Origin: a virus
Taxonomy: Duplodnaviria; Caudoviricetes
Reading direction: 5' to 3' (one strand)
IMG/VR virus record: IMGVR_UViG_3300010163_000002
Span: 128,001 to 192,000 of that record
Length of the DNA stretch: 64,000 bases
Shown: positions 2,986-63,855 of the stretch, piece after piece
Layout of the letters: each line of letters begins with the position of its first letter
Numbering within the stretch: position 1 is the first letter of the stretch
Position numbers and translations under genes: made by a program
The notes under the pieces: generated by a model
What the model was told of the DNA's origin: nothing
The model's database searches: none
Seen by the model: only the letters and a program-made list of their open reading frames with translations

Positions 2986-3423
2986 CTACGCTTTAGTTTC
3001 ATCATCATAATCCCATTCTATTTCTTCCTTTTTGAAATATAAATTTGTTGTAATATTTATAGCCCTATGGCCTCCATTAGCTACATTTATAAATGCATCT
3101 ACGTAAAATCTTCCAGCCGGCATAATCGCAAACTCATGCATATCAGATGTAATATTATTAGGCGATGTGCCATAGTCAAAATTAATAAGCTGTAGTATTA
3201 TAATGCCTTTTGTATTAAGCCAGCATATAGTATTTTTTGACAAGTCTGGATTTTCAACATGCTTAATAGCAAATTTTAAATTGTACCTCCCGTATTCTGA
3301 TTCAATGTGTACTTTATATTTTGCATTATTATATTCGTGCAGGCAAAATTGAATGGTGTCTAATTTTAAATATTCGTTTTCTATTAACACACTATTTATA
3401 ACTGGATGAAAAAATATCGACAT
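2986..3423 (-). CDS. hypothetical beta-rich protein, DUF6864-like (paralog of 3478-3888)
   Basis: Size and strand pattern (I..INF...P..., ...I..N.Y) recall DUF6864; recognised by eye only. Confidence 0.45.
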   Translation of the reverse strand: MSIFFHPVINSVLIENEYLKLDTIQFCLHEYNNAKYKVHIESEYGRYNLKFAIKHVENPDLSKNTICWLNTKGIIILQLINFDYGTSPNNITSDMHEFAIMPAGRFYVDAFINVANGGHRAINITTNLYFKKEEIEWDYDDETKA

Positions 3424-3477
3424 ATATGGCCTCCTTAAAAAATAGAGCCCTTCAGGAGTAATCCTGAAGGGTTGTTA

Positions 3478-3888
3478 TTATGCTCTGTATGTGTATACGT
3501 TTGCTGTGATAATTCTGGTGTTTGCGTCGTCGTTAAGCATTTCGAATATAAGATCGAAATAGATATCAGTATCACAGATGTTAGTAAGCTTCGATCTTTT
3601 TGTTGAAAAGATCTGAATACTTCCAGGAGTGCTTAATGTATTGATTACATTAATAAAGATCAGTCCTGTTTTAACATCTATATGCTGTTCCGTTCTAAAT
3701 CGATCATCATTTTGATCTGATTTGAAATCAACAACAATTCCAAACTGCGTCGCTTCCTTTTCATCATCGTAGATTTCATGGTCGAATCTTACGGGATCGT
3801 TATTGCGCGATACTGCATTTTGTGATGAAATCAACTCATAATGATCCCCGATAGATATAAATGCTTTTGCTCCAATAATTTTTGCCAT
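3478..3888 (-). CDS. hypothetical beta-rich protein, DUF6864-like
   Basis: YELISSQNAV...P.RF, INVINT...PG, IYFDL, RIITANVY; AGGAGG RBS. Confidence 0.5.
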   Translation of the reverse strand: MAKIIGAKAFISIGDHYELISSQNAVSRNNDPVRFDHEIYDDEKEATQFGIVVDFKSDQNDDRFRTEQHIDVKTGLIFINVINTLSTPGSIQIFSTKRSKLTNICDTDIYFDLIFEMLNDDANTRIITANVYTYRA

Positions 3889-3994
3889 GGTATGTTCCTC
3901 CTTAATATGGTTTTACTCTAAAGTTAGCCAGCTATTATTTAATAATGAAATAAAAAATAGAGTGGGATTTCTCCCACTCTAGCATGATTAGATT

Positions 3995-5554
3995 TTATTC
4001 AAATCTATCAATAATGTATTTCATTCTGGTTGTTGCCGTTTCTACTATCAACGCAAAATCCCATGTAGATCCATTACCATACATTAATCCTGCAGCAGCC
4101 TGAGCATCTGCTGGAATATCAGTAATTGGCGTAGATGATGAGTACGACTCAATTACTTTACGTACAGGATATAATTCACTTCTAAGTGACTGCGGGAACA
4201 ACGCTGAGCCACCACTCATAATTTTGTCTCTGCAATCTTTAATAATAAATAATACATAATCGGTATCTTCAGCTAGCATATCGCTTGAACGAGGTACAAT
4301 TGCGATAACTTCGCTTGATGGATTTACGTTAAACTGAGGGCATGTTGCACCGCCATTATAGACATACTGGCATAATGGGTTTCTTGCTTCTTTGGAATCC
4401 CATTTTATTAATGGTTCGGCGTCAGGATCGCATGCTGTTGTTAATGAACAGAAAGGATATCTTCCGTATCCATGCAAAGCAACATTGATTTTCAATGCGT
4501 TTGGCAAAACTGTTTTCATAAACTTTTTAAGCGTAACACGCAGAGGTTTATCAGTAACGTCAACAATGTTATTATTAACTTTATTTTTAGCATCGTCTTT
4601 TGTCCTAACATTAGAAAATACACCGCCATGTTTTTCTGTATCTTTTTCTTCCGGCTTCTTCCAGAAGAATTTGATAACATCGTCAATGGTAGCAATTCTA
4701 CGCTTAAGAGCAGATTCAAGATTAAGATCGGCAATAATCTTTTCAGCTTCTGTTACTAATGTTGATGAAGGAGCCGACTTTGGTCTCATATAATTCATTG
4801 GATCTACTTTTTCGTTGAACCTTTCAATTACAGTGTCATCGTCAATATTATTGATAATATCATCCATTAAAGATCCTTCAACAGATCCGGCAAGGTGATA
4901 TAGAAGGTTATATTTTTCAAAAGCGTATTTCCACAGTTTATTGGTGCGACACTGGCCTTTGGAGTTGTTTACATCATCCATTACTTCTTTAACAGCTTTA
5001 AGAGTGCTTAAAGTATTTTTGTCATGCAGTAATTCTGTTGATGCAATTGCAATTGCACGGTCGATTGCATTTATATATCTATTCAGTGCAAGTCTAACTG
5101 TGCTAAAAATGTGCATACATTCCTCGCTTGTTATTCCGTAGTCAGGAATCAATACATTTCTGCTTATATTAGCATGGAAATGGCTCCATTCTTCAGTTTC
5201 AGCGGTGCCATATTCAATATGGTCTTCGTGCCCAGTTACGTACGTATTGGCATTGCTACATAATACTTGCGTCATTCTGGATGATTCCACTTCTTCATTT
5301 AATGCTCTTACGATGTCTTTAAATACACCGCAAGCAAGATCTTCATTCCATATAATAGATCTTGTAGATCCAGTATCATCTACGTATACAAGAGTTCCAT
5401 ATCTATGGAAGAATCCGCGGCACGTATTACAATTGAAATGCTGTCTGATTTCTCCTTCCGGGATCATAGATAAGTACAAATCAAACAGCGGAGTTCTTAC
5501 ATCTGTTTTAAAGAGTGCAACTCCAGATACTTTGACGTTAACTCTAAGCTCCAT
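3995..5554 (-). CDS. phage hypothetical protein with HxxCxxC motif; N-terminus probably lies in another frame starting at 5643
   Basis: RQHFNCNTCRGFFHRYG motif; no RBS at 5554, while an RBS-bearing ATG at 5643 is out of frame. Confidence 0.7.
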   Translation of the reverse strand: MELRVNVKVSGVALFKTDVRTPLFDLYLSMIPEGEIRQHFNCNTCRGFFHRYGTLVYVDDTGSTRSIIWNEDLACGVFKDIVRALNEEVESSRMTQVLCSNANTYVTGHEDHIEYGTAETEEWSHFHANISRNVLIPDYGITSEECMHIFSTVRLALNRYINAIDRAIAIASTELLHDKNTLSTLKAVKEVMDDVNNSKGQCRTNKLWKYAFEKYNLLYHLAGSVEGSLMDDIINNIDDDTVIERFNEKVDPMNYMRPKSAPSSTLVTEAEKIIADLNLESALKRRIATIDDVIKFFWKKPEEKDTEKHGGVFSNVRTKDDAKNKVNNNIVDVTDKPLRVTLKKFMKTVLPNALKINVALHGYGRYPFCSLTTACDPDAEPLIKWDSKEARNPLCQYVYNGGATCPQFNVNPSSEVIAIVPRSSDMLAEDTDYVLFIIKDCRDKIMSGGSALFPQSLRSELYPVRKVIESYSSSTPITDIPADAQAAAGLMYGNGSTWDFALIVETATTRMKYIIDRFE

Positions 5555-5753
5555 GCGGCAAGATTTTTCATTGTTTTATCATAATCTGCCTTATAAGTAT
5601 TAAGTTCCTCATTTACGTTTGTTTCCATACAAATTTTGCACATACTTTTTATCTCCTTTTCTTCTTTTTACTATTTTTCTTGTTAAAATTCATTTGTCCT
5701 TCTATTTTACGGCACATATTATTCCTCCCTTCATTCAGCATATCTATATATGG

Positions 5754-6131
5754 TTAAACCCTACCATGCCAATAAGAGCTCAGCGCCTTTTTGATTTTAT
5801 CCTCCATATCATCATTTGAAAATTCTCCAAGCGGAGCGACAGAAATGCGCTGTACTATATCTGAGCCATAATATACACCTTGCATAGTATCTATTCGACA
5901 TATTTTATAAGGTTTAGATAGGATCTCTTTATCATATTTTTCTTCTACCTCTGGATTTGGTAAAGAGATTGCAAACCTCATTTTACCGCACTCTGTAGTA
6001 ACAAGTGTAAATTTATCACCATTAATTATATTTTGGTATTTTCCTGTATTAGGATTTATACGTTCATATAAGAATCTAAGTAAATCTTTTTCATTGATTT
6101 CCCCAAGATATTTAGGTTTTGTTCTACTCAT
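5754..6131 (-). CDS. hypothetical protein with a subdomain homologous to the DGR target
   Basis: ATG 6131 with AAGGAG RBS; motif YLGEINEKDLLRFL...TGKYQNIINGDKFTLV. Confidence 0.65.
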   Translation of the reverse strand: MSRTKPKYLGEINEKDLLRFLYERINPNTGKYQNIINGDKFTLVTTECGKMRFAISLPNPEVEEKYDKEILSKPYKICRIDTMQGVYYGSDIVQRISVAPLGEFSNDDMEDKIKKALSSYWHGRV

Positions 6132-6141
6132 ATATTCTCCT

Positions 6142-6690
6142 TTAGTTGTAAATAGGATTTTTCTCACGTATCACCTTATCAAATTTGGTATCTTTATCAG
6201 ATTTACCTTTAAGTATCCATTGAGTATACATGTCTCCAATTGTTTCACATCTTACGTGATAACCTATATCAGGATTAAATCCCATAGATAATACTCTAAC
6301 TTTCACTTTATCGTCGTTATTTACAAGTGTAAATACATCTCCGATTTTTATATTTTCAAATTTTCCAGTGTCAATTTTATGATCTTTTATAAATTGAGAA
6401 ATATTTTCTGGAGTTATTTCTCCAAAGTCTTTTACTTCAAATGATAAATTATTAAGATTCATACTTCCTCCTTTTAAAAATATTGGAGATAAGCCAACCA
6501 TAGAGTAGCAAGCTGGCCTTACAGTAATACGTTCTGCTGATTTATCCCATGATAAATATGGCATATAATGTGGAGCCCATGTATCCTCTGAAAGCCGCTT
6601 ATCAAATTTTTCTATTTTGCTTTTTAATGATACGCATTGCTTAAACTTATGATTCCATCCCTTTATCTTACGGTTTTTCTTTTTTCTCAT
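6142..6690 (-). CDS. hypothetical protein with internal RBS and ATG at 6462; C-terminal part homologous to a DGR target subdomain
   Basis: KDFGEITPENISQFIKDHKIDTGKFENIKIGDVFTLV; AGGAGG precedes both ATG 6690 and ATG 6462. Confidence 0.65.
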   Translation of the reverse strand: MRKKKNRKIKGWNHKFKQCVSLKSKIEKFDKRLSEDTWAPHYMPYLSWDKSAERITVRPACYSMVGLSPIFLKGGSMNLNNLSFEVKDFGEITPENISQFIKDHKIDTGKFENIKIGDVFTLVNNDDKVKVRVLSMGFNPDIGYHVRCETIGDMYTQWILKGKSDKDTKFDKVIREKNPIYN

Positions 6691-6828
6691 TATTTGCCTC
6701 CTTTGTTTAATATTTTAAAAAGTCCACATAAAGGTATTACTTTATGTCTGGCTATAAATATATTATACATTTCAAATATACTTTTTTACCTGTATAGGTT
6801 CTAATAAAACGTAACAATGTTAGACTCA

Positions 6829-6840
6829 AACATAATGATA
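6829..6840 (+). promoter_or_regulatory. late-type promoter motif AACA-N6-TA
   Basis: AACATAATGATA upstream of the RBS of 6869; one of about 20 copies. Confidence 0.7.
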
Positions 6841-6868
6841 ATAAAATGTTAAAGGAGGTAGCATTGTT

Positions 6869-8095
6869 ATGGCGATTAATAAGGCCACTTTAGCCAAAGA
6901 GATCGATGGCGTTATAGAGTATATATACCCTAAAACTACTGCTGATCTTGTAGAGTATGATGCGTCTTATACTGTTGAAGAAAAAATTAAACAGTTAGAG
7001 AAAAACATCACTGGCGTCAATGACAGGGTTAGTAATCTGACCACTGGAATTGGAGACGGTAGTATTACATCTGTACTCGATGCTGAGCTTTTGGATATTA
7101 GAATTCCTAATGCCGGTGTAGTCGGAACAGAAGTTAAATATGCATCTGCTGGCGATGCTGTCAGAGGTCAAGTTGGTAAACTTTCTGATGAGATAGGCCA
7201 GAATAGAAGTAATCTTTCTAACGTGAAAGGCAAAGTTGATACTCTTGAGAAAATTGTTTCCTCAATTCAGGGAACCGCTGGAAATTCTAATGCAGAAGTA
7301 GTTGGATTGAGGGTTCCAAATTCTAAAATCAGTGAATTAACATACCAGAATGCCGGAGAGGCTGTAAGAGCACAGTTAGGAATTTTATTTGATAAAATCA
7401 TAGCTACCGATGCAAAAATAAGCACAATGCAAAATGCTTTCCAAGGAGGAGAAGTAAGTTCTGCTGAAGGATTGGAATTGGTAGATATTCGTACTCCTAG
7501 CTATAATGTGGTTCCAGAGGGAACTACGTATAAGACAGCCGGCGAAGCAGTAAGAGCACAGATGGATGCTCTTAATGAAAAAATTGAAGAGGTAAAAGAT
7601 GGGACGTATTATGAACTCCTGTATGTAAATGGAGAGCCTCTCTATACATCAGACGGTGAACCTATACTTGTATCCATCTCTTATAATGAAGTCGGAACAT
7701 CTGATATTTCTGCACTTGAGAAACGTATGAGGCAGGAGCTCAAGGATACGTTGGCTGCCCATACAAGAATTATGCAGCAGACTCTTAATGTAATTAATGA
7801 AGGAATGGAAACAATGCAAAGAAATATCGATATGATATATACCGGAAAATACTGTGAACCGATTATGATCGATGGCGACGAGTGGTATACTTCTGATAAG
7901 CAGCAAATTGTTACTTATACATCAGTTGGAGATTTAGCTCAGGAAGCTATTGACAGAACAGCTCAGTTATTAAGAGGAGAAATCTATCAAGCTAAAGTAT
8001 CTTGTGCAAGAGCTTTAAAAGATTGGGTTATGGATCAGAACATGTTGTTTCTTGTTAATACAGAACCTATAATCGAAGAAGTTACAGCATCTTGA
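6869..8095 (+). CDS. tail-fibre-associated structural protein with three ELxDIR...YxxAGxAVRxQ repeats
   Basis: N-terminal YPKTTAD motif; three internal repeats; late promoter; directly upstream of the DGR target. Confidence 0.6.
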   Translation: MAINKATLAKEIDGVIEYIYPKTTADLVEYDASYTVEEKIKQLEKNITGVNDRVSNLTTGIGDGSITSVLDAELLDIRIPNAGVVGTEVKYASAGDAVRGQVGKLSDEIGQNRSNLSNVKGKVDTLEKIVSSIQGTAGNSNAEVVGLRVPNSKISELTYQNAGEAVRAQLGILFDKIIATDAKISTMQNAFQGGEVSSAEGLELVDIRTPSYNVVPEGTTYKTAGEAVRAQMDALNEKIEEVKDGTYYELLYVNGEPLYTSDGEPILVSISYNEVGTSDISALEKRMRQELKDTLAAHTRIMQQTLNVINEGMETMQRNIDMIYTGKYCEPIMIDGDEWYTSDKQQIVTYTSVGDLAQEAIDRTAQLLRGEIYQAKVSCARALKDWVMDQNMLFLVNTEPIIEEVTAS

Positions 8096-8162
8096 TATAT
8101 GTTATGGATTAAAACCAGAAATGGTTTTAATATATAAATTTTTAATAGGAGGTAAACCTACA

Positions 8163-9041
8163 ATGGGCAAAACAATTGCTAATTTAATTCAGGTAAATGA
8201 ATTGACAGCTAATGATGTATTTGTAGTAGGTACGGCCGCCGGCGATCGTAAGGTTCCTTACAATGTGCTGGTGCAGAATACTTCACACAATGCAATCTTT
8301 AGAGGCAAAAATCTTGGAACTGTAACAGCAGCCAACATTGACGCTTTCATTACTCAGCATGGTATTGCTACCGGAGTGTTTAATGATATCTATGTTGGTG
8401 ATTACTTCACTGCATCATATGCCGGAGCAAATACGGTATTCCGTATTGCTGGTATCAACTTCTATAAGAATACTGGTGATACGCAGTTGACTGCTAATCA
8501 TGTAGTTATCGTTCCAGATGGTAACCTTACAACTGCTGCGATGAATTCCACTAATACTACTGGAAAGAGTGCTAATGAAGCTAATACTTCTGAGAAGAGC
8601 GGATTCCTTGGTAGTGATATGTGGAATATTGTACTTCCGGATGTTAATGAGAAGCTTGCTGCTATCTTTGGCGGCCATCTGCTTACTCACAGAGAAATCC
8701 TTTCTAATAGCATGGATGAGAATGCTATTCCGTCTGGAAATCCATCTTGGAAGGGTGCTAGTAACGGATGGGAATGGGTAGATTGTAAGGCAGTTCTTAT
8801 GTCTGAAGTTGAAGTATATGGAGCTCCTGTATGCGGATCTTCGCTGTATGATGTAGGAATTGCAAACTGCATTCTTCCGCTGTTCGTGCTTGAAAAGCGT
8901 TATCTTACAAACAGAAGCTGGTTTTGGCTCAGAGGCGTAGCAAGTTCCGCGAATTTCTGCTATTGCACCAGCTATGGCGTTTCGGTCTGCAATAACGCGT
9001 CTAATGTCCTCGGCGTGCGGCCCCGCTTCCTTTTAGGTTGA
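8163..9041 (+). CDS. DGR target protein, putative receptor-binding tip with C-terminal CLec-like (DUF6273-type) variable domain
   Basis: Start at ATG 8163 (AGGAGG RBS); LMSEVEVYG...WFWLR...GVRPRF motifs; contains the VR. Confidence 0.9.
   Translation: MGKTIANLIQVNELTANDVFVVGTAAGDRKVPYNVLVQNTSHNAIFRGKNLGTVTAANIDAFITQHGIATGVFNDIYVGDYFTASYAGANTVFRIAGINFYKNTGDTQLTANHVVIVPDGNLTTAAMNSTNTTGKSANEANTSEKSGFLGSDMWNIVLPDVNEKLAAIFGGHLLTHREILSNSMDENAIPSGNPSWKGASNGWEWVDCKAVLMSEVEVYGAPVCGSSLYDVGIANCILPLFVLEKRYLTNRSWFWLRGVASSANFCYCTSYGVSVCNNASNVLGVRPRFLLG
8943..9031 (+). repeat. DGR variable repeat (VR)
   Basis: 89-nt ungapped match to 9984-10072; 15 mismatches, all at TR adenines. Confidence 0.97.
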
Positions 9042-9101
9042 TCCATAGCCCTAAAGCCGCCCGCTGTGTCGGTGCGGCATGGGCTATGAAAGATCAACCT
9101 A
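9034..9101 (+). promoter_or_regulatory. post-VR compound hairpin/cruciform (DGR target-recognition element)
   Basis: Nested inverted repeats TAGGTTGATC/GATCAACCTA, CATAGCCC/GGGCTATG, GCCGC/GCGGC, CCG/CGG. Confidence 0.75.
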
Positions 9102-9280
9102 CAACGATAGCATATAAAATGTAAAAATATACCATATAAAACACTCTAATAATATATGCTATGAGATATATTCTGGTCTTCTTATATAGCATGGCATGTA
9201 TTATCGTTATCCACATCCTTTTTGATTACGGGCGAGGTAAAACTCGCCTGTAATAATAAATATTATAAGAGGTTGAAACT

Positions 9281-9985
9281 ATGTCTGTTCCTGTTTATAG
9301 AAGAAATGAATCTAAATTGGAGTTTTACGAAAATTTCTTTAAGCTTAGAAGAGAAGTTTTACTTCTGTTAGCTAGGGATTTCGGAATTAAAGCTAGAACG
9401 TATGACGTAAATCTTGTGTCTGACATTTATGGCTTAAATAATCATGATAGAAATGAACTAATGGATATAGGGCAAAGAAATAATATCACCGGGTTTAATG
9501 TTGATAAGATCCCTATGTGGTTAATCGAGAATTGGCGGTATGAGATAATGAACATTTTAAATAATATTGGGATCGCCATTAACTGTGCTAATGCTATTTA
9601 CATAGTTAATCTTCCCGAATATTATGATAGACGGAATTTTCTTAATCATGCTATAGGATATTGCATGGCTCTTCAGGATAAGCTGAATGAAATCATAGTT
9701 TGCTTAAAAGATGTCAAATTAGGTGCGTATGAAAACGTATATAAGTTGATAGTTAGCGAAATAAGATTGTTAAAAGCTTTAAGGAGAAGTGACAATAAAC
9801 TATATAAAAAGTATGAGAATACTTTTCCGTACTACAATGGTTCGTTTTATTACAATGCTCCGCCTGTCCCGCCAACGTATATGTATGACGTTGAGAATGG
9901 CTCGGTAAATCGAGTCATGCTGGACATGTGCAAAATAGTTGATAAGAAAACAACCCCGTTTAAATCTCTGGGCATAGCTGCATAA
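9281..9985 (+). CDS. avd: DGR accessory variability determinant (Avd-like helical protein) with C-terminal extension
   Basis: MSVP..RR.ESKLEF N-terminus, ANAIY...YYDRR...AIG.C and EI.LLK..R.SD; lies between target and TR. Confidence 0.85.
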   Translation: MSVPVYRRNESKLEFYENFFKLRREVLLLLARDFGIKARTYDVNLVSDIYGLNNHDRNELMDIGQRNNITGFNVDKIPMWLIENWRYEIMNILNNIGIAINCANAIYIVNLPEYYDRRNFLNHAIGYCMALQDKLNEIIVCLKDVKLGAYENVYKLIVSEIRLLKALRRSDNKLYKKYENTFPYYNGSFYYNAPPVPPTYMYDVENGSVNRVMLDMCKIVDKKTTPFKSLGIAA

Positions 9986-10072
9986 TTCCACGAATTTCTG
10001 CAATTGCAACAACAATGGCAATTCGAACTACAATAACGCGTCTAATGTCAACGGCGTGCGGCCCCGATTACT
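9984..10072 (+). ncRNA. DGR template repeat (TR), part of the avd-TR-spacer RNA
   Basis: 12 AAY codons in the VR frame; differs from VR only at adenines. Confidence 0.95.
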
Positions 10073-10209
10073 GCCGGTATAACCAGAGGGTTATATTGGA
10101 GAGTAAGGAGCTTATGCCCATCCTCTCGTTCATACGAACGTTTGGTGAATTATTACTCGGAACCCGGATACGTCCGATGGTTTAATTTTTGTTTTGGTTG
10201 GTGCTATAG

Positions 10210-11400
10210 ATGTATGAAGCAATCTGTTTAATTGATAATTTATATGACGGATTTAGAGATGTTAGGTCTAAAAGCGGATGGAAACCTGAAACTCAACGGT
10301 ATTCTATGTATATGATGCCTAATCTTATTGAATTGAGAGATTCATTAGTTAATGGTACGTATAGACCTACTCCTCCAAATGGCTTTATTCAAAATGAGAG
10401 AGGAAAACCTAGATGGATAGAGTCAAGGTGCGTTAACGATAGAATCGTTAATAAAGTGGTGCATGATCATGAGATCATGCCAGCCATATTTCCAAAACTT
10501 ATATATGATAATGCCGCGTCTATAGAAAACAGAGGAACAGATTTCTTCAGGCGTAGATTGTTGTACCATCTTTCTAGTTTTGCTGCAGAACATGGAACAG
10601 ACGGTTATATTCTATTAATAGATTTTAAGAAATTCTTTGATAATATCAGACATGATGATCTAATACTGATGTTCAGACAGGTGATTTCTGATCCAAGATC
10701 GATGCGCCTTATTGAGATGATGATTAGATCTAATAGAGTTGATGTTTCATACATGAGTGATGAAGAGTATGCCAATTGCATGAATGTACCGTTCAATAAC
10801 CTTGAGTATCGTCAGAAAATTGTTTCTGGCGAATATAAAGCAACTGGCGAACGGTTTATGAATAAGTACATGGGGATTGGCAGCCAGATAAGTCAGGATG
10901 CTGGTATTTATTATCCTCATGATATAGATAATTATTGCAAGATAGTGAGGGGCGTTAAGGGTTATGGAAGATATATGGATGATTCTTATGCCATTCATCA
11001 TTCTAAAGAATTCTTATGGGATTTATTGATGCATATAAAAGAAATATGTATTACCCTTGGAATATTTTTGAATGAACAAAAGACTCAGATTGTAAATCTC
11101 AAACATGAATTTACAATATTACATACAAGATATAAGCTACATGAAAATGGAGATGTTTCAATAATCGCTGATTCTGATTCATTCAGCAGAGAACGCCGTA
11201 AGCTTAATAAGCAAGCTGATATGTTGAATGAAGGTTATGAAAGAATATCATATGATATTATTCGTAATCAATATAACTCATGGAGAGGAAATATTGTTAG
11301 AACAGCTAATGGTAGAAATATAGAACCATTACAAAGGATGGATAATCATTTTAATGAATTATTCATCGAACCATTCGCTAATGGCCAAATAATTATATAG
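10210..11400 (+). CDS. DGR reverse transcriptase
   Basis: ERGKPR, DRIV, IDFKKFFDNI, IGSQISQ (DGR-type SQ), RYMDD; no maturase or endonuclease domain. Confidence 0.96.
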   Translation: MYEAICLIDNLYDGFRDVRSKSGWKPETQRYSMYMMPNLIELRDSLVNGTYRPTPPNGFIQNERGKPRWIESRCVNDRIVNKVVHDHEIMPAIFPKLIYDNAASIENRGTDFFRRRLLYHLSSFAAEHGTDGYILLIDFKKFFDNIRHDDLILMFRQVISDPRSMRLIEMMIRSNRVDVSYMSDEEYANCMNVPFNNLEYRQKIVSGEYKATGERFMNKYMGIGSQISQDAGIYYPHDIDNYCKIVRGVKGYGRYMDDSYAIHHSKEFLWDLLMHIKEICITLGIFLNEQKTQIVNLKHEFTILHTRYKLHENGDVSIIADSDSFSRERRKLNKQADMLNEGYERISYDIIRNQYNSWRGNIVRTANGRNIEPLQRMDNHFNELFIEPFANGQIII

Positions 11401-62534: not shown

Positions 62535-62556
62535 GAGGTAAAGGAGGTTAAGTAGG

Positions 62557-63855
62557 ATGGCATATGGAATTGTAAATGGTCCTGCAGGAGCATCTAGATC
62601 ATCTGGTGTTTCTGGATCTGGAATAAGTATTGTGCCATTTCAAACTGGCGGATTAACATATAACAGCAAAGAACAATCCCCTGTATGGAGTAATTATGAT
62701 ACCGAAAAGCTTACACTTGGTGGAGTGACTAAGAGTACTAATGCCGGTACATATATTGCTACATTCACTCCTAAGGAAGGTTATACATGGATGGACGGAA
62801 CCACTGGAGCCAAAGAGGCTCCGTGGACCATCGCTAAAGCACCAGGAAATTTGACAGCAGGAAGAACAGATATGATTTTTGATGTTTTTAATTTATCAGA
62901 AACTATAAATATTATATGTGATGGGGATGGAGCCATAAGTGTTAAGGTTATAAATGAAGATATTGCTACAGTTGAACTATTTGGTACAGAATTGACAATA
63001 ACTGCTATAAAGAAGGGTTATACAGGTATTATTTTAAGATCGATGGAAGACGATAATCATACTGTTTCTGAATTTAAAGTAATACACGTGCATTGCGATA
63101 TTCCAAGTAGCGTATTAGAAGAAAATGATATTAAATATATTGTAGATGCGGCAAAATCAGGAACGGCCAAAAATTTCTGGTCTGTGGGCGATACTATTCC
63201 TATACAGTTAGAGTATGGCTACGATGTTGGTTTAGGCGCACATCCGATTATATATGCGTATATAATTGGTTTTAATCATAATCCAGATATTGAAGGAAAT
63301 AATACAATACATTTTCAATTAGGCAAAACTGAAGATGGTACTGATATAGCCATTACAACTACACACTATGGTAGTGGTAGCAGTTCTAGCTCTGGAACTT
63401 TCCATATGATTTTGCAAGGTAGCAATGCAGGGGGGTGGGAAGGAACTAGCTTGAGAAAAAATGATTTAAATAAAACATTTTTTAGCGCATTTCCAACCGA
63501 ATGGCAAAATGCTATGAAAAATTGTCCTAAATATACCAATAATATAGGACAAAAATCTTCATCCGTTTCAGTTACCGAAGATAAATTATGGCTATTATCT
63601 GAATTTGAAGTTTTTGGAGAAATAACTAGATCAACTGAACTAGAACAAAATTTCCAAAAACAATATTCATATTATGCTAATGGTAATAGTAAAATAAAAT
63701 ACAGAAGTAAATCATTAGATACTACTGCTATTTGGTGGTTACGTTCTCCTGCTTTTGCAAGTAGCGGTTTTTGCTGCGTTTTAAATGATGGTTTGCCTGG
63801 CGTAGCACAACAGTACATGGCATATGGATTATCCGCGTGTTTTGCAGTAGGTTAA
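62557..63855 (+). CDS. tail-tip protein with Ig-like domains and C-terminal DUF6273/CLec-like domain
   Basis: WSVGD, IIGFNHN, N.GGW..., DKLWLLSEFEVFG, WWLRSP...FC.V...G. Confidence 0.8.
   Translation: MAYGIVNGPAGASRSSGVSGSGISIVPFQTGGLTYNSKEQSPVWSNYDTEKLTLGGVTKSTNAGTYIATFTPKEGYTWMDGTTGAKEAPWTIAKAPGNLTAGRTDMIFDVFNLSETINIICDGDGAISVKVINEDIATVELFGTELTITAIKKGYTGIILRSMEDDNHTVSEFKVIHVHCDIPSSVLEENDIKYIVDAAKSGTAKNFWSVGDTIPIQLEYGYDVGLGAHPIIYAYIIGFNHNPDIEGNNTIHFQLGKTEDGTDIAITTTHYGSGSSSSSGTFHMILQGSNAGGWEGTSLRKNDLNKTFFSAFPTEWQNAMKNCPKYTNNIGQKSSSVSVTEDKLWLLSEFEVFGEITRSTELEQNFQKQYSYYANGNSKIKYRSKSLDTTAIWWLRSPAFASSGFCCVLNDGLPGVAQQYMAYGLSACFAVG

Follow-up and report, generated by a model that had tools for sequence, protein, structure and literature searches.

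Two small genes beside a phage DGR look like N-lobe-only derivatives of its target protein

The DGR locus and the two small genes

The stretch of DNA that we analysed, called the window throughout, is 64,000 nucleotides long and covers bases 128001-192000 of an IMG/VR phage record; the record has 248,905 bp and ends in direct terminal repeats. The phage has a G+C content of ~32%, and its genes include those for split RNA-polymerase beta-type subunits. At 6869-11400 there is a complete DGR, comprising a fibre gene, the target, an Avd-position gene, the TR, and a reverse transcriptase (RT) with an RVT_1 match. Two small ORFs, P0001 and P0002, are arranged head-to-head with the fibre gene, from which 178 bp separate them. 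The features discussed here are:

5754..6131, minus strand: P0001, 125 aa; RBS AGGAG 5 nt before the ATG
5996..6047 versus 6318-6369, minus strand: DNA repeat with 75% identity, encoding the TGK[YF].NI..GD.FTLV core in both small genes
6142..6690, minus strand: P0002, 182 aa; RBS GGAGG 6 nt before the ATG
6145..6462, minus strand: candidate internal start of P0002 at Met77, read from sequence only; AGGAGG, 4 nt, then ATG at 6462
6691..6868: divergent intergenic region of 178 bp between P0002 and the fibre gene, with ATGTATAATATAT at 6758-6770
6869..8095, plus strand: 408-aa coiled-coil fibre protein, upstream of the target
8121..9041, plus strand: DGR target P0003, 306 aa; N-lobe at residues 56-140, C-type-lectin-like fold at ~90-306, VR at 8945-9031
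9281-9985: Avd-position gene, part of the DGR
9986..10072, plus strand: template repeat (TR); the TR/VR pair is unique in the genome

An earlier, sequence-only reading of this DNA had noticed that both small genes lie on the minus strand, opposite to the fibre gene and the target, and that they have intact RBSs; all of this is borne out, and the three peptide strings that it compared are indeed present in the target and the two ORFs. The second RBS and ATG that it pointed out inside P0002 are also there, and a start at Met77 could possibly yield the N-lobe copy alone. The full-length P0002 consists of a Lys/Arg-rich N-terminal part (residues 1-71), with no detectable relatives, followed by the N-lobe copy (residues ~72-164). 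P0001 starts 10 nt past the P0002 stop and carries its copy of the motif in residues 7-47; the rest of the protein has no detectable relatives. Homology between the C-terminal part of P0001 and the helix region of the target was considered and is unsupported by the N-half HMM. Elsewhere in the genome, nothing paralogous to residues 1-78 of P0002 or to the C-terminal part of either protein was found, and both proteins have zero matches in Pfam, PHROGs, NCBIfam, and PADLOC.

The same reading had placed the small genes behind an early-type promoter motif. The motif is present in the divergent region, but 33 motifs like it were found compared to 26 +/- 6 in shuffled sequences; because this count is not above the shuffles, the label of early-type promoter is unsupported. 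Promoter scans likewise gave no more sigma-70-like sites than shuffled sequences do, and no enrichment of the TATAATAT-type motif.

The VR at 8945-9031 is 84% identical to the TR at 9986-10072. Contigs of near-identical strains from other samples (two rat-gut metagenome studies, four runs, three of them labelled rat metagenome) vary at many positions in the VR (8952, 8968, 8971, 8973, 8979, 8980, 8985, 8986, 8989, 8994-8995, 9003-9004, and 9009-9010), and show scattered differences in the rest of the target. This concentration of strain differences in the VR is direct population-level evidence of an active DGR.

Several other features of the genome touch on this locus. An N-terminal anchor motif, MAINKATLAKE..YPKT.ADLV.YD, is common to several fibre-like genes of the phage: the fibre gene of the DGR (window 6869-8095) and genes at positions 183772-186174, 193474-194352, and 194392-194688 of the genome. 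The fibre genes upstream of the targets at two related loci, L009 and L004, also carry it. On the other side of the small genes, the 519-aa phrog_1735 gene (window 3995-5643, minus strand) is apparently split by a frameshift in the present assembly; in contigs from two runs, an extra A after 5528 fuses the 48-aa ORF at 5497-5643 with the 519-aa ORF into a 549-aa ORF that starts at 5643. Contigs from three runs have a 1-nt deletion at 5698. Lastly, a 437-aa ORF at window 62542-63852 (plus strand) matches the lectin C-terminal half of the target in residues 328-436 (HMM E 2e-4) and has neither an N-lobe match nor homology to the TR/VR pair; its product could be a second C-lectin tip protein, one that undergoes no diversification.

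Homology to the target and the structure of the shared piece

Residues ~72-164 of P0002 are homologous to residues ~48-140 of the target. The direct comparison with P0003 gives a BLASTP E of 8e-6 (shuffle z 14.7), and the target relatives P0124, P0008, and P0010 give E values of 1e-13, 3e-13, and 4e-12 over up to 93 residues. Profile comparison, which the sequence-only reading had proposed as a check, agrees: against the 120-member family profile, P0002 has an hhalign probability of 95% (E 2e-8), and against the family N-lobe HMM its E value is 3.6e-10. P0001 in turn has a motif of ~40 aa in common with P0002 (E 6e-6, shuffle z 8.1), underlain by a DNA repeat of 47-52 nt with 75-77% identity. 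Compared directly with the target or its family, P0001 gives only a weak signal (shuffle z 2.0, hhalign E 0.011), and its tie to the family rests mainly on P0002. Nevertheless, P0001 ranks third among the 3209 ORFs of the genome for the N-lobe HMM (E 0.038; the next is at 0.81), behind the target and P0002, and these three are the only N-lobe matches in the genome.

The shared pattern that the earlier reading had given does describe all three sites, though not as it was written: a spacer of five positions stands where the proteins have six or seven residues, and in that form the expression matches nothing. Once corrected, it yields exactly three matches in the six frames of the 248,905-bp genome. 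The main proposal of that reading, that the two ORFs are derivatives of the variable protein lacking the VR, holds on the BLASTP and hhalign homology, clearly for P0002 and chiefly by way of P0002 for P0001. Judged by these comparisons, P0001 and P0002 are VR-less partial paralogues of the target.

To see what the shared piece is, we turned to predicted structures. The AlphaFold2 model of the target has a mean pLDDT of 88.7, and its residues ~90-306 align with C-type-lectin-like (CLec) domains, including 9qa6, the N-domain of a T. ramosa IgA peptidase (Z 12.8), Treponema TvpA (Z 5.6), and many C-type lectin domains (Z 5-6). The match to Pfam DUF6273 scores 14.8 bits, below the gathering threshold of 23.5. 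Given how its model matches C-type-lectin-like domains, P0003 is, on predicted structure, a single-domain DUF6273-type C-lectin DGR target of the gut-phage kind (PMC10743442). The block that it has in common with the small proteins (target ~48-140) is made up of a strand, a helix, and a loop ahead of the CLec fold together with the first hairpins of the fold, and it holds the most conserved positions of the family: R61, G62, K63, L65, G85, F87, D89, G93, and D94.

What the small proteins lack is the rest of the domain: the two helices of the fold, its later strands, and the VR hairpin. With the family HMM for the C-half, no match is found in or after P0001 and P0002, only matches to the target, the translated TR, and the 437-aa ORF, and a blastn search of the whole genome with the TR returns the VR at 8945-9031 and nothing in 5754-6690. 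This agrees with the earlier statement that neither ORF has the VR-bearing C-terminus. Since they have no C-half and no TR homology, P0001 and P0002 cannot form the lectin fold, display a VR, or be rewritten by the DGR; without lectin core or VR, they cannot bind a ligand as the target does.

The AlphaFold2 model of P0002, which was made with target-family rows as input, is confident only over residues ~85-160, where it has one helix and several strands; the pLDDT is 85-94 at residues 90-150 and below 50 for the N-terminal 82 residues, so that confidence is confined to the part where the target-family rows inform the prediction. The model has no helices equivalent to target residues 166-186. 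Its best match among PDB representatives is 6o38, an Acinetobacter CpaA entry (PMC10253068), with a Z of 6.3 that is inside the noise range, and nothing was found in BFVD at E <= 0.001. A shape search of the Atlas places viral Mtd_N/DUF6273 clusters at the top with a TM of 0.42, a result that is partly circular given the target-family alignment used as input, and ESM Atlas feature searches returned nothing over noise.

Coding character, divergence, and distribution

Several lines of evidence bear on whether P0001 and P0002 are real genes. Using a codon-usage score trained on 110 long ORFs of the genome, we found that both have an in-frame log-odds of 0.30, compared to a genome gene mean of 0.29-0.34, and that none of the other five frames scores above -0.35. 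No longer or competing ORF overlaps them on the other strand. In near-identical strains, the two genes carry six substitutions, no indel, and no stop. These polymorphisms (one synonymous and one non-synonymous in P0001, one and three in P0002) are too few to gauge selection.

Over longer times the two proteins have changed a great deal. In a tree of the N-lobe built on 68 columns, their terminal branches measure 1.65 and 3.3 substitutions per column compared to a median of 0.09, that is, 18-36 times the family median. They are placed, provisionally, beside the jumbo-phage target clade. Within the motif, dN is 0.42 and dS 0.87, over 40 codons and with much noise. Taken together, high divergence combined with open frames, RBSs, gene-like codons, and a kept core motif suggests that selection has long maintained them, and P0001 and P0002 look like real genes by these measures.

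We then asked whether other phages have genes of this kind. A word-based search of 5.8 billion proteins with P0002 returned only P0002 itself, and an exhaustive HMMER scan of 1.84 billion representative proteins found no orthologue, only two full-length target-family matches. Among shorter proteins with the target N-lobe, there was one fragment only, on a 585-bp contig. No relatives came to light in IMG/VR scans for which P0001, P0002, and the adjacent 519-aa protein served as queries, and blastn and tblastn searches of INPHARED phages gave no match to P0001 or P0002 either.

The genes are also absent where the target family itself is found. Of the 86 loci with the target family that we collected, 80 come from IMG/VR and 6 from ENA/Logan, and each was taken with its flanks as far as the contig reached, up to 8-10 kb; none has an N-lobe-only ORF, and every N-lobe match at these loci is accompanied by a C-half. 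Likewise, five other large phage genomes with the target family (117-220 kb, 92-100% complete) have one N-lobe each and no N-lobe-only ORF. At L009, a related jumbo-phage locus, the corresponding position is occupied by a pair of small ORFs on the minus strand that are unrelated to P0001 and P0002. As far as these comparisons reach, the fibre-flanking slot is plastic, and P0001 and P0002 are lineage-specific.

Two further observations were made at the related loci. Upstream of the fibre/DGR block of L009, on a 179-kb related contig, there is a tyrosine recombinase (Phage_integrase) gene at 3017-4036, ~3 kb away; the window has no counterpart of it near the DGR. Two of the 80 IMG/VR loci, L012 and L047, contain two full-length target modules each (N-lobe plus C-half), showing that whole-gene duplication of the target occurs elsewhere.

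Origin and possible roles of P0001 and P0002

In our assessment, the scaffold half of a fibre-tip gene probably gave rise to P0001 and P0002 as lineage-specific, neofunctionalised small genes. Their origin would be a partial duplication of a DGR-target-type fibre-tip gene in which the copy took the non-variable N-lobe only, that is, the beta-alpha element before the CLec fold and the first hairpins. The truncated copy would then have been duplicated in tandem to give P0001 and P0002, and both copies would have diverged very fast with their frames kept open. The two proteins have derived states in common, an N at the near-invariant D89 of the family and the residues FTLV, which fit one truncation followed by tandem duplication. 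Both also keep the most conserved scaffold motif of the family, K-x-L/F-G ... T-G-x-F/Y-x-N-I-x-x-G-D-x-F-T, and because this motif is kept, we infer that they would act by protein-protein or structural contact through the retained surface, possibly at the fibre tip.

In a rival reading, which goes back to the sequence-only one, the small proteins are fibre-tip modulators or decoys: the N-lobe copies would co-assemble or compete with the target, or with the docking site of the 408-aa fibre, and so tune the number of diversified tips. Retention of the scaffold motif despite extreme divergence elsewhere fits such a role, as does the control region common to the small genes and the fibre/target operon; on the other hand, the target can evidently do without them, given that no examined phage with this target family has such genes, and the small proteins lack the presumed attachment part of the target (residues 1-55), so we regard this role as rather unlikely. 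It is improbable, too, that the scaffold half of the target has been exapted into stand-alone regulators, acting on the fibre tip or its partner by way of the invariant surface that they retain, for example to dose or cap the mounting of DGR-diversified tips. Alternatively, the ORFs could be non-functional recombination leftovers in a plastic slot that are still open by chance. They are singletons, the L009 slot holds other, unrelated small ORFs, non-synonymous changes outnumber synonymous ones among the few strain differences, and the genome, which is AT-rich, does contain spurious antisense ORFs of 130-146 aa. Yet the frames are intact after 1.65-3.3 substitutions per column, with canonical RBSs and gene-like codons in one frame, no remnant of the C-half trails behind them, and the conserved core motif is present in both copies, which makes leftovers an unlikely account.

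Two other explanations fare worse against the data. A chance likeness of a short motif might be suspected from P0001 and the target alone, given their z of 2.0 and hhalign E of 0.011, but the statistics for P0002 are far beyond chance, P0001 matches the adjacent P0002 in the same register and with similarity at the DNA level, and the corrected pattern has no further matches in the genome; we give chance very little credence. The inverted orientation beside a fibre-tip gene also recalls the G segment of Mu and the C segment of P1, in which DNA inversion exchanges alternative tip cassettes. However, the copies correspond to the N-terminal part of the module instead of an alternative C-terminal part, and both are equipped with a start and an RBS of their own; we found no inverted repeats with the target gene, no DNA-level similarity to it, no recombinase among the scanned neighbours, and no inversion joints in the contigs of four runs. 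Such cassettes are extremely improbable here.

Fibre-tip genes are hotspots of recombination, and partial duplicates and mosaic fragments are common around phage tail-fibre genes, as in lambda stf/tfa, T-even gp37/38, and the invertible segments of Mu and P1, and the partial copies known from such loci are mostly C-terminal specificity cassettes or decaying fragments. P0001 and P0002, in contrast, represent pieces of the N-terminal scaffold; each begins at a start of its own, and both are intact in spite of strong divergence. Among DGR accessories, which include Avd and HRDC proteins, those of the Avd type accompany the RT from one DGR to another and take part in cDNA synthesis. The small genes resemble these accessories in being adjacent to a DGR and differ from them in that they do not co-occur with DGRs elsewhere. 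It had been suggested that they represent a new kind of DGR accessory; since other DGRs with the same target family do without such genes (0/86 loci, 0/5 large phages, and no P0002 orthologue), this step is unsupported. In our assessment, P0001 and P0002 are not part of the DGR mechanism.

Other parallels concern the target itself. Gut phages have single-domain DUF6273-type C-lectin DGR targets, nd4_tgt2 and nd12_tgt2, of 234-294 aa (PMC10743442). P0003 is like them in having ~300 aa, one globular C-type-lectin-like domain, a C-terminal VR, and a weak DUF6273 match, whereas P0001 and P0002 correspond to the first ~60-95 residues of the module only, with no lectin core and no VR. In cyanobacteria, DGR variable proteins have intragenomic whole-domain paralogues, some of them no longer linked to a TR (PMC7517822). 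In both cases a DGR target has been duplicated within one genome, leaving copies with no TR link; the cyanobacterial paralogues comprise the whole CLec domain, often with kinase- or caspase-like domains, while here the N-lobe alone is left of the module, in a pair of small free-standing proteins. Two separate genes that keep the N-lobe and nothing further of the module are a new twist on the known duplication of targets and fibres.

The understanding of DGRs is unchanged by these genes, as they are confined to one phage lineage and their function is something that we only infer. If the target's scaffold half had indeed been exapted for regulation, the phage would possess a regulator of its fibre tip made from the target itself. 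The two genes provide a clean, datable case of small phage genes born from a fragment of a receptor-binding protein, and they indicate that in the DUF6273-type DGR target, which is widespread, the N-lobe may be retained after the lectin core is gone.
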